From Escherichia coli (GTDB lineage Bacteria > Pseudomonadota > Gammaproteobacteria > Enterobacterales > Enterobacteriaceae): a DNA stretch of 64,000 nt. The translations under genes and the position numbers were made by a program. The stretch lies in assembly GCF_003334255.1 (NCBI RefSeq), contig NZ_QOWU01000008.1; one strand, 5' to 3'. This document shows, one piece after another, positions 15,048 through 63,041 of this stretch. Under the pieces are notes generated by a model, which worked only from the letters and a program-made list of their open reading frames with translations, had not been told where the DNA came from and ran no database searches. Numbering within the stretch: position 1 is the stretch's first letter; each line of letters opens with the position of its first letter.

Positions 15048-15371
15048 TTACAGGCGGTGGCGATAATCGCTGGGAGTGCGATCAAACTGCCGACGGAAAA
15101 CGCGGGAGAAGGTCTGCTGCGAGACATAACCCAGGTCCATTGCGATATCAAAAATCGGACGCTCGGTGGTGCGCAACTCAACGGCGGCCAGTAACAGGCG
15201 GCGTTGGCGAATGTAATCGCCAAGCGTCTGATGCGTCACCGTGCGGAACATTCGTTGCAAGTACCACTTTGAATAGCCTGATTTTTTTGCGACTACATCA
15301 ATGTTAAGCGGCTGGTCAATATGCTCGTCAATCCATGCGATAAGATCCTGAATAATTTTCTGATGGGACAT
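15048..15371 (-). CDS. soxS: AraC-family superoxide-response activator SoxS (107 aa)
   Basis: Translation MSHQKIIQDLIAWIDEHIDQPLNIDVVAKKSGYSKWYLQRMFR with two HTH motifs. Confidence 0.95.
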   Translation of the reverse strand: MSHQKIIQDLIAWIDEHIDQPLNIDVVAKKSGYSKWYLQRMFRTVTHQTLGDYIRQRRLLLAAVELRTTERPIFDIAMDLGYVSQQTFSRVFRRQFDRTPSDYRHRL

Positions 15372-15456: not shown

Positions 15457-15921
15457 ATGGAAAAGAAATTACCCCGCATTAAAGCGCTGCTAACCCCCGG
15501 CGAAGTGGCGAAACGCAGCGGTGTGGCGGTATCGGCGCTGCATTTCTATGAAAGTAAAGGGTTGATTACCAGTATCCGTAACAGCGGCAATCAGCGGCGA
15601 TATAAACGTGATGTGTTGCGATATGTTGCAATTATCAAAATTGCTCAGCGTATTGGCATTCCGCTGGCGACCATTGGTGAAGCGTTTGGCGTGTTGCCCG
15701 AAGGGCATACGTTAAGTGCGAAAGAGTGGAAACAGCTTTCGTCCCAATGGCGAGAAGAGTTGGATCGGCGCATTCATACCTTAGTGGCGCTGCGTGACGA
15801 ACTGGACGGATGTATTGGTTGTGGCTGCCTTTCGCGCAGTGATTGCCCGTTGCGTAACCCGGGCGACCGCTTAGGAGAAGAAGGTACCGGCGCACGCTTG
15901 CTGGAAGATGAACAAAACTAA
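15457..15921 (+). CDS. soxR: MerR-family redox sensor SoxR with [2Fe-2S] cluster (154 aa)
   Basis: MerR-type HTH N-terminus and C-terminal [12 protein letters not shown] cysteine cluster. Confidence 0.95.
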
Positions 15922-16054
15922 AGCGCCACAAGGGCGCTTTAGTTTGTTTTCCGGTCTTTGTCTTTCTCTCTATCCCGCTGGTACACAGGAGGGTTTCCCC
16001 CGACGTCAACACACCTCATTCGAGCACGTGGTGGAGGTTCCGGTTGGTGTTGAT
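15915..16054 (-). ncRNA. ryjA: candidate small RNA RyjA/SraL, convergent with soxR
   Basis: Placed from recollection that K-12 carries this sRNA just 3' of soxR on the opposite strand, sharing the terminator hairpin; not verifiable from sequence alone. Confidence 0.35.
15921..15950. terminator. hairpin at the soxR 3' end (AAAGCGCCacaaGGGCGCTTT), likely bidirectional
   Basis: Inverted repeat overlapping the soxR stop, followed by a T-rich tract. Confidence 0.7.
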
Positions 16055-16196
16055 GCTTTAATTGTATGTCACCGACGTTTCTTCGCCAGTGTAAAAGTAT
16101 ACTTTTTAACCGCAATATTTTTGTCATCTCAGACGATTTTTTATCGCAATCCTGAACGGTATACGGCTCGATAACGCTGCAATCTTGCGCACCGAC

Positions 16197-16213
16197 GATA
16201 ACGTTTGCGCATC
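16197..16213. promoter_or_regulatory. PurR-box-like motif (reverse complement GCGCAAACGTTATC) upstream of ghxP
   Basis: Similarity to the PurR operator core CGCAAACGTTT; a second AAACGTTTGC copy at 16341..16350 and a weaker one near 16397. Confidence 0.3.
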
Positions 16214-16466
16214 AATTGCCTGGTTTTTCATCGTCAAGACAATAAAAGAGAAAAAAGCAGCAAACTTCGGTTGAAAAAGCCGCTATGATCGCCGGATAAT
16301 CGTTTGCTTTTTTTACCACCCGTTTTGTATGCGCGGAGCTAAACGTTTGCTTTTTTGCGACGCAGCAAATTGTCGCAAACCTGGAGCAGGAAGATAACGT
16401 TTCGCTGGCAGGGGATTGTCCGCCACGCATCTTGACGAAAATTAAACTCTCAGGGGATGTTTTCTT

Positions 16467-17816
16467 ATGTCTACGCCATCAGCGCGTACCGGCGGTTCAC
16501 TCGACGCCTGGTTTAAAATTTCACAACGTGGAAGCACTGTCCGTCAGGAAGTGGTTGCCGGGTTAACAACGTTTCTGGCGATGGTCTACTCGGTCATCGT
16601 CGTTCCAGGTATGTTGGGTAAAGCAGGCTTCCCGCCTGCGGCAGTTTTCGTTGCAACCTGTCTGGTTGCCGGACTCGGTTCTATCGTGATGGGTCTGTGG
16701 GCTAATCTGCCGTTGGCGATTGGTTGCGCCATCTCCCTGACAGCGTTTACCGCATTCAGCCTGGTGCTGGGGCAACATATTAGCGTACCTGTCGCGCTGG
16801 GTGCCGTGTTCCTGATGGGTGTGCTGTTTACGGTAATTTCTGCCACGGGTATCCGTAGCTGGATTTTGCGCAACTTGCCTCACGGTGTGGCGCACGGCAC
16901 GGGGATTGGTATCGGTCTGTTCCTGCTGCTCATTGCCGCTAACGGTGTCGGTCTGGTGATTAAAAACCCGCTTGATGGTCTGCCCGTTGCGCTGGGTGAT
17001 TTCGCGACCTTCCCGGTGATTATGTCACTGGTAGGTCTGGCGGTGATCATCGGCCTGGAAAAACTGAAAGTCCCTGGTGGCATTCTGCTGACCATTATCG
17101 GTATCTCAATTGTCGGTTTGATCTTCGATCCTAACGTCCATTTCTCCGGCGTTTTCGCCATGCCTTCATTGAGCGATGAAAACGGCAATTCACTGATTGG
17201 CAGCCTGGACATTATGGGCGCGCTGAATCCTGTAGTCCTGCCAAGCGTTCTGGCGCTGGTGATGACGGCAGTATTTGATGCCACCGGAACTATCCGTGCC
17301 GTCGCCGGCCAGGCGAACCTGCTGGATAAAGATGGGCAGATCATCGACGGTGGGAAAGCACTGACCACTGACTCCATGAGCAGCGTTTTCTCTGGCCTGG
17401 TGGGTGCGGCTCCGGCAGCGGTATACATCGAGTCTGCGGCGGGTACGGCGGCGGGCGGTAAAACCGGTTTGACGGCTATCACCGTTGGCGTGCTGTTCCT
17501 CCTGATTCTGTTCCTCTCTCCGCTCTCTTACCTCGTTCCGGGGTATGCAACGGCTCCGGCGCTGATGTACGTTGGCCTGCTGATGCTGAGCAACGTGGCG
17601 AAAATCGACTTTGCTGATTTTGTTGATGCGATGGCGGGTCTGGTTACGGCTGTATTCATCGTGCTGACCTGTAACATCGTAACAGGCATCATGATCGGCT
17701 TCGCGACTCTGGTGATTGGTCGTCTGGTTTCCGGCGAATGGCGCAAGTTGAACATCGGTACGGTCGTTATCGCCGTGGCGCTGGTGACCTTCTATGCGGG
17801 TGGCTGGGCTATCTAA
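16467..17816 (+). CDS. ghxP: guanine/hypoxanthine permease, NCS2/AzgA family (449 aa)
   Basis: Polytopic membrane protein with AzgA-like sequence; conserved position after soxR. Confidence 0.85.
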
Positions 17817-62252: not shown

Positions 62253-63041
62253 TCAGGCAGCTTTCGCGTTCTCTTCGACGCGGTTAATGCTGCGGTAGAG
62301 ATGGTCAAAACGTTCGTTATCAAACTGTTGGCTGCTGCCGTCGTAGAAGACGTGCCCCTGGCGCAGGGCGACGATGCGTTCGCAGTAGCGCAGGGCGTAA
62401 TCCACCTGATGCAGCGTGACGACCACGGTGATGCCGTCGTTCTGGTTGATGTCGCGCAGGGTGTCCATCACGATGCGCGCTGATTCTGGGTCCAGCGAGG
62501 CGATGGGTTCATCGGCCAGAATCACTTTCGCCTGCTGCATCAGCGCACGGGCAATCGCCACACGTTGCTGCTGGCCGCCGGAGAGGGTGGAAACGCGCTG
62601 ATGGGCAAAATGCACCATGCCAACGCGGGTCAGCGCCTGTAACGCGCGCTGTTTCTGCTCGCCGGTGAACCAGCTAAAACAGGTGCGCCAGAACGGCGTG
62701 CTGCCGAGCGCGCCAATCAGCACGTTCTCCAGTACGCTCAGGCGGTTCACCAGGTTGAATTGTTGGAATATGTAGCCGGTATGGGCGCGGCTTTTGCGGA
62801 TATCGCGGGCCAGGCGGCCTTCGCGCTGGACTGTGCGGCCCAGCAGCTCGATATGGCTACCGACAGATTTATCGCCGGTAATCAAACCGCTTAAGTGACG
62901 TAAAAGGGTGGATTTTCCGGAACCCGACGGCCCAAGCAGAGCCACCATTTCACCGTGATGAATGTTCAGATCAACCGCATGCAGCGCCTGATGCTGATTG
63001 AAGGTTTTGGCGAGCTTCTCGACACGGATAATCGTTTGCAT
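62253..63041 (-). CDS. phnC: phosphonate ABC transporter ATP-binding protein (262 aa)
   Basis: Walker [10 protein letters not shown], signature LSGGQQQR, Walker B ILADEP. Confidence 0.92.

Follow-up and report, generated by a model that had tools for sequence, protein, structure and literature searches.

PurR operators and a candidate conserved leader RNA overlap upstream of the purine importer gene ghxP in Escherichia coli

The guanine/hypoxanthine importer gene ghxP (yjcD) of Escherichia coli is preceded by a cluster of related sequence repeats, which raises the question of whether all of them are operators of the repressor PurR. We addressed this question in a 64,000-nucleotide (nt) stretch of E. 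coli DNA (contig NZ_QOWU01000008.1; in the following, the window). An initial annotation, made from the sequence alone, had placed three spaced copies of an AACGTTT-type core near positions 16201, 16341 and 16397 and an inverted repeat at about 16356 to 16380 upstream of a purine permease gene, had pointed out the likeness of the core to the PurR operator and had remarked that three such sites would be unusual. All of these elements exist: copy 1 is AACGTTTGC at 16200-16208 inside ACGATAACGTTTGCGC, copy 2 is AAACGTTTGC at 16341-16350 inside AGCTAAACGTTTGCTT, copy 3 is AACGTTTCGC at 16396-16405 inside AAGATAACGTTTCGCT, the inverted repeat consists of TTGCGAC (16355-16361) and GTCGCAA (16372-16378), and the gene downstream is ghxP, with its ATG at 16467. 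As detailed below, the ghxP promoter and leader probably carry two overlaid layers, PurR operators at the level of the DNA and a structured RNA at the level of the transcript, and the palindrome and copy 3 appear to be helices of a conserved, folded leader RNA.

The heptamer AACGTTT occurs 20 times in the window, compared to 10.8 ± 3.6 expected occurrences, and three separate loci with it lie within a span of 203 bp in the region upstream of ghxP. In addition, a fourth PurR-like copy, GGATAATCGTTTGCTT at 16294-16309, had been missed in the initial annotation. A repeat finder returned this copy together with copy 2 as a 17-nt direct repeat in E. coli (TAAWCGTTTGCTTTTTT; TAATCGTTTGCTTTTTT at 16297 and TAAACGTTTGCTTTTTT at 16340), and it returned the regions around copies 2 and 3 (16337-16352 and 16391-16406) as an inverted repeat with 81% complementarity. 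Copy 3 is also closely similar to copy 1 (GACGATAACGTTT versus GAAGATAACGTTT). In the following, we refer to copy 1 as box A, to the fourth copy as box B and to copy 2 as box C.

We built a PurR log-odds matrix from the 27 other sites in Table 1 of Cho 2011, leaving out the ghxP site, and scanned both strands of the window (127,970 positions). Boxes C and A turned out to be the two best matches, with 19.4 bits (rank 1; per-position p 1.8e-7) and 18.6 bits (rank 2; p 3.4e-7), respectively; the best match after them reached 12.4 bits, and only about 0.0002-0.0004 matches at the level of boxes A and C are expected in the ghxP intergenic region. Box B scored 10.6 bits (rank 9; 0.03 such matches expected in the region), while copy 3 scored 7.2 bits (rank 25; p 1.3e-4; 0.14 expected in the intergenic region), which on its own is not significant. 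When the 27 published sites were scored by leave-one-out, they spanned 7.7-25.0 bits, so that boxes A and C fall inside this range, box B at its weak end and copy 3 under every published site. The PurR box upstream of purR, a member of the training set, scored 22.7 bits with the same matrix, and a second PurR-like box just within the purR coding sequence, which we take to be the weaker second operator of purR, scored 10.1 bits, about as much as box B; at purA, the matrix likewise gave one strong and one weak box. Two further candidates were discarded. A box B-like match of 10.9 bits at 63026-63041 (GGATAATCGTTTGCAT) lies within the phnC coding sequence and is probably due to chance, and a half-site AGCAAAC at 16259-16265, upstream of the predicted -35 element, has no central CG and no matrix score above 7.

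The literature shows both PurR occupancy of this region and purine- and PurR-dependent repression of ghxP. A PurR chromatin immunoprecipitation-microarray (ChIP-chip) region at 4,275,855-4,276,485, labelled ryjA/yjcD, was detected with a log2 value of 2.08 and only with adenine (Cho 2011, PMC3159470). By coordinate mapping, this region corresponds to positions 15820-16450 of the window and covers all copies, and its sole listed motif (4,276,230-245; Cho 2011, PMC3159470) is ACGATAACGTTTGCGC, identical to copy 1. The peak carries the label 'ryjA/yjcD', yet about 150 bp separate the RyjA start from box A, which lies on its upstream side. Kozmin et al. 2013 cite the ChIP result together with an independent report of adenine repression of yjcD via PurR, and describe a 4-fold decrease of yjcD with a purine analogue. 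Moreover, ghxP is part of the PurR-1 iModulon, and the PurR motif reported upstream of ghxP in the iModulon study maps approximately to box A. Copy 2 (AGCTAAACGTTTGCTT, at -130) is among the sites common to a 2015 regulon reconstruction and RegPrecise, and copy 3 (AAGATAACGTTTCGCT, at -76) was proposed as an additional in silico PurR site (PMC4576408). PurR control of ghxP and the identification of copies 1 and 2 as PurR sites are thus already known; each of the three copies has been noted somewhere before but never together, the sources giving one site each and disagreeing on which. In the searchable literature we did not find box B, the fixed spacing of boxes A and B or the leader domain described below, and the literature search yielded no PurR chromatin immunoprecipitation-exonuclease (ChIP-exo) data resolving individual boxes.

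Conservation distinguishes the copies further. Among 80 orthologous loci from species of the Enterobacteriaceae, with GhxP proteins 90-100% identical, box A was kept in 79, with an almost always unchanged sequence, box B in 78 (10.4-13.9 bits; also in Erwinia and in more distant orthologues) and box C in all 80 (12.8-22.8 bits). The distance from box A to box B is exactly 99 bp in 79 of the 80 species and 100 bp in Mangrovibacter; the distance from box B to box C is 43-48 bp in most species and up to about 205 bp in those with insertions. Between boxes A and B about half of the bases vary, and the neighbouring leader is rich in insertions and deletions (indels), with the A-B spacing fixed. More distant loci retain different subsets of the boxes. 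Two Erwinia loci (L081/L082) are without box A, keep the promoter with box B and have a box C of 17.6 and 20.4 bits, respectively; a bee-associated (bee-gut) enterobacterium (L085) has boxes A and B at 99 bp and is without box C; and in a lineage with an 85%-identical GhxP (L083/L084), box B is retained, box C is weak (10.4 bits) and a strong box of 17.1 bits occupies the copy 3 position, these boxes lying at about -138 and -73 from the ATG. With the PurR matrix, the median score of copy 3 over 71 sequences is -3.3 bits and the highest 9.9 bits, and only 3 of these sequences attain at least 9 bits; judged by these alignments, copy 3 is not credible as a conserved PurR operator. The PurR reading of the initial annotation is right about the locus and about copies 1 and 2, which are backed by the ChIP motif, the matrix and the literature, and fails for copy 3. 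The arrangement of several boxes that is kept across species comprises copy 1, a box over the -10 element and copy 2.

Box B coincides with the predicted promoter. In a consensus scan, TTGAAA-18-GATAAT was the sole promoter-like site, and two blocks that contain its hexamers are invariant across the alignment, GTTGAAA (16270-16276) and GGATAATCGTTTGC, which comprises the -10 hexamer GATAAT and downstream bases; the spacer is constant in length and essentially random in sequence among species. This pattern has the appearance of a ghxP promoter footprint, with a start predicted near 16307. The TTGAAA is kept in the two Erwinia loci and reads TTGATT in the lineage with the 85%-identical GhxP. Downstream of the -10 hexamer, CGTTTGC is also invariant in the alignment. 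A second promoter at box A, with GATAAC as its -10 element, was considered and rejected, as neither E. coli nor the consensus has an acceptable -35 element at a distance of 16-18 bp.

For the palindrome and copy 3, the aligned leaders point to the transcript. An alignment of 71 distinct leaders, made from the sequences only, served to count the pairs of a defined structure with helices P0 to P4 (Table 1), which lies downstream of the predicted start. In this structure, 87.6% of the cells are paired, compared to 30-49% in controls with the 3' partners shifted by 1-3 columns; 19 of 35 pairs are changed on both sides, compared to 9-14 in the shifted controls; and there are 152 compensated cells, compared to 19-45 in the controls. 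Upon 500 shuffles, the observed value was never reached on four of five measures and was reached once in 500 on the fifth. Within pairs, G.U combinations (210) outnumber C.A combinations (97, of which 60 represent one recurrent mismatch), an excess that favours RNA of the sense strand. RNAalifold independently predicts P3 and the outer part of P1. Single-sequence folds recover P1 in all seven leaders (E. coli, Salmonella, Klebsiella, Enterobacter, Kluyvera, Erwinia and the lineage with the 85%-identical GhxP) and P2 to P4 in most of them, with z-scores from +0.6 to -3.9.

The helices differ in how strongly they are supported. In P3, which is formed by the palindrome, all six scored pairs covary and 95% of the cells are paired, with arms such as GCGAC/GUCGC, GUGAC/GUCAC, GUGGC/GCCAC, GCGAU/AUCGC, GCAGC/GCUGC and ACGGU/ACCGU, often via G.U. 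The arms thus change between species yet stay complementary, including through G.U pairs, which argues against the palindrome being a protein-binding site on DNA. In P1, at least five pairs covary in several independent variants (UAUACGUGG/CCACGUAUA in Salmonella, GUCUGCG/CGCAGAC in Kluyvera, GUAAGCG/CGCUUAC in Enterobacter; also UUAUGCG/CGCAUAA). P2 pairs box C with copy 3; here, alignment columns 32 and 104, outside the PurR core, covary (C-G 26, U-A 25, U.G 12). In addition, the box C core UAAUCGUUU of the lineage with the 85%-identical GhxP is matched by AAACGAUUA at the copy 3 position, a clean compensation in P2; the strong 17.1-bit box of this lineage lies on the opposite arm of the helix. 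In P4, 93% of the cells are paired and the helix is mostly invariant. Covariation in the alignment thus argues strongly for P1 and P3, for P2 through one pair, and weakly for P0 and P4. The partial conservation of copy 3 is better explained by RNA pairing with the box C core, because its median PurR score is -3.3 bits. Based on these comparisons, the palindrome and copy 3 appear to represent helices of the leader RNA rather than binding sites.

A covariance model of the domain matches upstream of ghxP in the genera that bear leader insertions, all its other matches being weak, with E values of 0.3 or more; elsewhere in the window only one weak match was obtained (E 0.3), and none of the regions upstream of ghxQ, adeP, purR or purA was matched significantly. 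An Rfam 15 cmscan of positions 15800-16600 with E up to 10 yielded nothing in 16100-16500, the only hits being sraL and noise in the soxR terminator region. Leader insertions of 10-190 nt, some of them hairpin-forming, occur in several genera (Klebsiella, Raoultella, Kluyvera and Buttiauxella among them). All of them lie in linkers and leave P1-P4 intact: between +10 and P0 (L053, L057, L038, L042, L074-L079), between P3 and the 3' strand of P2 (L061, L063, L065-L067, L076), or between the 3' strand of P1 and the Shine-Dalgarno sequence (L032).

Two conventional functions were considered for the leader and set aside. A 22-codon open reading frame (ORF; ATG CGC GGA) from the ATG at 16329 to a TAA at 16397 spans box C and P3 in E. 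coli; it is probably not a leader peptide, because its ATG is missing in Enterobacter (GUAAGCG) and Kluyvera (GUCUGCG) and because the loop indels are not multiples of three. A terminator or attenuator at the U-run 16351-16356 was rejected, as there is no terminator-like site on the + strand and the stable hairpin comes only after the U-run; for the nascent RNA 16307-16357, the folding energy is only -5.1 kcal/mol (z +0.38).

Two further features of the leader deserve mention. In 52 of 71 species, the P3 loop (16362-16371) contains CCCC, usually CCCCU, which is complementary to the invariant Shine-Dalgarno AGGGG (16452-16457); in the E. coli window, the loop reads GCAGCAAAUU instead of CCCC. 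The complementarity may reflect a loop-Shine-Dalgarno interaction that has been lost in E. coli. Separately, there are three conserved CAG-N-GGA-U-like motifs at 16386-16395, 16408-16417 and 16451-16459, the last being the Shine-Dalgarno sequence CAGGGGAUGU; as CAGNGGAU-like motifs, they resemble the CsrA binding consensus.

Several points weigh against the two-layer arrangement of PurR operators and leader RNA. As to the DNA, ChIP-chip resolution (a 630-bp region) cannot tell which boxes are occupied, all positions relative to +1 rest on the consensus promoter and its conservation, and the fixed A-B spacing finds no ready explanation in PurR, a dimer that is not known to form loops. As to the RNA, the close relatedness of the species (effective sequence number 1.8) inflates the shuffle statistics; beyond the covarying columns, P2 is invariant and hence weakly tested, and in the Kluyvera group a change on both sides of one inner P2 pair results in a U x C mismatch; P4 and P0 show little covariation; and the E. 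coli leader does not exceed shuffled sequences in stability (z -0.05 over its full length, -1.6 for the core). Taken to the extreme, only box A, the single motif listed for the ChIP-chip peak in the published table, would be functional, the other copies would be neutral look-alikes, and the RNA structure would be an artefact of relatedness and of palindromic pairing, the more so as inner P2 is self-complementary by construction and the E. coli fold is not unusually stable. We consider this very improbable: box C outscores box A and is kept in all 80 species, as well as in the Erwinia loci without box A; unconstrained positions nearby, for example in the promoter spacer, in the P3 loop and ahead of box A, have become random in these same species; and P1 and P3, which are without a PurR motif, carry most of the compensatory changes. 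The opposite extreme, in which all three copies of the initial annotation are PurR operators that act together, for example by cooperativity or looping, and in which a different transcription factor binds the palindrome, draws on the likeness of the three cores, in particular of copies 3 and 1, on the published prediction of a site at -76 (PMC4576408) and on the strong box at the third position in the lineage with the 85%-identical GhxP. It is unlikely as well, given that copy 3 scores at a level expected 0.14 times by chance and poorly over the 71 species, that its flanks covary with those of box C in the manner of an RNA helix, that the palindrome arms are kept in complementarity and not in sequence, with G.U pairs used, and that the distances from B to C and from C to copy 3 differ between species.

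The status of box B is less settled. It is conceivable, albeit the less probable option, that box B is not a PurR site and that it owes its conservation only to the -10 hexamer and the initial transcribed sequence, or to a Fur box. Its GATAAT is the -10 hexamer, and the -10 element with the initial transcribed sequence could by itself account for the conservation; its left half matches PurR sites poorly, with an A at position 3 versus G or C in known sites, and 0.03 matches with its score are expected by chance in the region. Moreover, a Salmonella study predicted in silico a Fur box (AAAAAGCAAACGATTATC) on the exact box B sequence and found yjcD up 2.8-fold in an anaerobic fur mutant. This Fur box (window 16295-16312) is the reverse complement of box B plus a T-run, and by a hand count it matches 11 of 19 positions of the Fur consensus, half of them in the T-run, which, however, is not conserved outside Escherichia, Salmonella and Citrobacter; the literature search returned no Fur occupancy data for this site. 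In favour of PurR, the invariant CGTTTGC(C/T)T after the -10 hexamer forms a right half-site that matches PurR perfectly and is likewise seen in the purR upstream operator, and many species have AGATAATCGTTTGCCT, which scores 13.7 bits and is two changes away from the glyA operator. We therefore favour a weak PurR box at this position.

Based on these results, we suggest the following model for ghxP. PurR with its corepressor, hypoxanthine or guanine, represses ghxP; as GhxP imports the PurR corepressors, this constitutes a direct negative feedback on corepressor uptake. PurR would bind boxes A (about -104) and C (about +37) with high affinity and probably box B with lower affinity. At box B, over the -10 element and the start site, it would exclude RNA polymerase, and at box C it would block early elongation or promoter escape downstream, as PurR does at purB and purR. 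The downstream operators of purB and purR reportedly act as roadblocks, and purR and purA are said to have two operators each. The fixed 99-bp distance suggests a spacing-dependent interaction between boxes A and B. At the RNA level, the leader of about 160 nt would fold into the conserved domain 16321-16437, in which the transcript of the palindromic box C core would pair with copy 3 (P2), the palindrome would form P3 and the long-range helix P1 would close the domain. A simple translational or attenuation switch is not evident, because the Shine-Dalgarno sequence is unpaired in the consensus fold and there is no terminator before the U-run. Our guess is that the leader RNA affects mRNA stability or serves as a platform for a protein or a small RNA, rather than hiding the ribosome-binding site. 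That the domain is a riboswitch-like sensor that exerts post-transcriptional purine control, with a PurR operator in a strand of P2, is an improbable, more far-reaching extension of this model by analogy with the guanine riboswitch of Bacillus pbuG; a less radical version would be a nucleoprotein complex of PurR that relies on boxes A and B being 99 bp apart.

The elements of the ghxP region can be compared to several known systems. Its boxes resemble other operators of the pur regulon in being 16-bp imperfect palindromes with a central CG, a near-perfect half-site CGTTTGCGY and a degenerate half, and in repression via the corepressors hypoxanthine and guanine. The known cases include the multi-operator and downstream-operator genes purR, purA and purB; unlike these, ghxP has strong boxes on either side of the promoter (about -104 and +37) and a weak one on the -10 element. 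Its far-upstream box and its promoter box keep a distance of 99 bp family-wide, and operator box C in addition encodes one strand of a putative RNA helix. At gal, GalR, a dimeric repressor of the LacI/GalR family without a tetramerisation domain, acts from operators OE and OI that bracket the promoter. The ghxP arrangement is similar to this repressosome in having a dimeric LacI/GalR-family repressor and two operators bracketing the promoter, whereas at ghxP the A-C distance is not conserved and only the A-B distance is; we know of no evidence for a PurR dimer-dimer interaction or for a need for HU. For the A-B spacing, we regard the comparison with OE/OI as a lead by analogy. Bacillus subtilis pbuG encodes a hypoxanthine/guanine permease of the same transporter superfamily, is controlled by a purine repressor and has a guanine riboswitch in its leader. 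The riboswitch family of pbuG (RF00167) and the ghxP leader thus share a structured 5' leader before a permease gene under a purine repressor. However, RF00167 has no match here at E up to 10; its three-way junction with kissing loops differs from the elongated P0-P1-P2 stack with two hairpins predicted for ghxP; and no expression platform is evident in the ghxP leader, the ribosome-binding site being unpaired and a terminator lacking. Finally, the small RNA SraL/RyjA lies in the same intergenic region and under the same ChIP-chip peak label, but it is a separate, convergent transcript that ends in the soxR terminator and has no overlap with the motifs.

The features of the region are compiled in Table 1. 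Position 16467 of the window, the ghxP start, is K-12 coordinate 4,278,479. Positions 15900-16500 are 100% identical to many complete E. coli genomes, and their placement between soxR and ghxP is found in 5,420 of 5,426 assemblies. RyjA/SraL converges on soxR and overlaps its last codons; a hairpin with a 13-bp stem at 15915-15945 serves as the shared terminator region. The heptamer TTGCGCA is found twice, 20 bp apart, at 16185-16191 and, within box A, at 16205-16211; lacking a central CG, the first of these blocks does not qualify as a PurR box.

Table 1. Features upstream of ghxP and in its neighbourhood (window coordinates; scores of the boxes are given in the text)
Feature	Position	Strand	Remarks
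Box A (copy 1), PurR operator ACGATAACGTTTGCGC	16195..16210	+	ChIP-chip motif; centre about -104.5 from predicted start
Box B, weak PurR-like box GGATAATCGTTTGCTT	16294..16309	+	Overlaps -10 and +1; centre -5.5 from predicted start
Box C (copy 2), strong PurR operator AGCTAAACGTTTGCTT	16337..16352	+	Centre about +37.5; left half is 5' strand of putative helix P2
Copy 3 AAGATAACGTTTCGCT	16391..16406	+	3' strand of putative helix P2; centre +91.5 from predicted start
-35 hexamer TTGAAA (predicted)	16271..16276	+	Promoter scan; alignment-invariant; conserved upstream extension CAAAGTT..G
-10 hexamer GATAAT (predicted)	16295..16300	+	18-bp spacer; start predicted near 16306-16308
Candidate leader RNA domain P0-P4	16321..16437	+	About 115 nt; covariation
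P0	16321-24 / 16434-37	+	Little covariation
P1, 5' strand GUAUGCGCGG	16327..16336	+	Pairs with 16423-16432
P1, 3' strand CCACGCAUCU	16423..16432	+	Pairs with 16327-16336
P2 (box C with copy 3)	16337-47 / 16396-16406	+	Inverted repeat; one covarying pair
P3 hairpin (palindrome), UUGCGAC / GUCGCAA	16355..16378	+	Variable loop; follows conserved U-run 16351-16356
P4 hairpin, GGGGAuugUCCGC in E. coli, GUGGAuugUCCAC in most species	16411..16423	+	Stem 16411-15 / 16419-23
Shine-Dalgarno AGGGGA and ghxP start codon	16452..16469	+	Species-invariant; unpaired in consensus fold
TTGCGCA block just upstream of box A	16185..16191		Invariant in 15-genus alignment; 1.6-1.8 bits per position in 79-sequence profile
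soxS	15048-15371	minus	
soxR	15457-15921		
RyjA/SraL small RNA	15914-16054	minus	Rfam RF01408, 153 bits
Gap between RyjA and ghxP			412 bp
ghxP (yjcD), guanine/hypoxanthine importer	16467-17816		Start ATG 16467; yjcE next

At the DNA level, the motifs upstream of ghxP are real and mostly ordinary. Repression of ghxP by PurR is unsurprising, as an importer is shut off by the corepressors that it brings in, and the operator map refines the existing picture modestly: two strong sites lie on either side of the promoter, and a third, probable one covers the -10 element at a spacing that is fixed across the Enterobacteriaceae. At the RNA level, the leader constitutes a new candidate element of moderate interest: the domain, supported by covariation, comes from an intensively studied genome and has no counterpart in Rfam, and we found no literature on it. 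According to the covariation evidence, half of the apparent PurR motif repeats represent RNA structure, which calls for caution elsewhere, as palindromic operators in transcribed regions yield look-alike repeats through RNA pairing. If the leader domain is regulatory, it would constitute a new control point for purine salvage and would affect the uptake of the toxic purine analogues 6-mercaptopurine and HAP, which enter the cell via GhxP.

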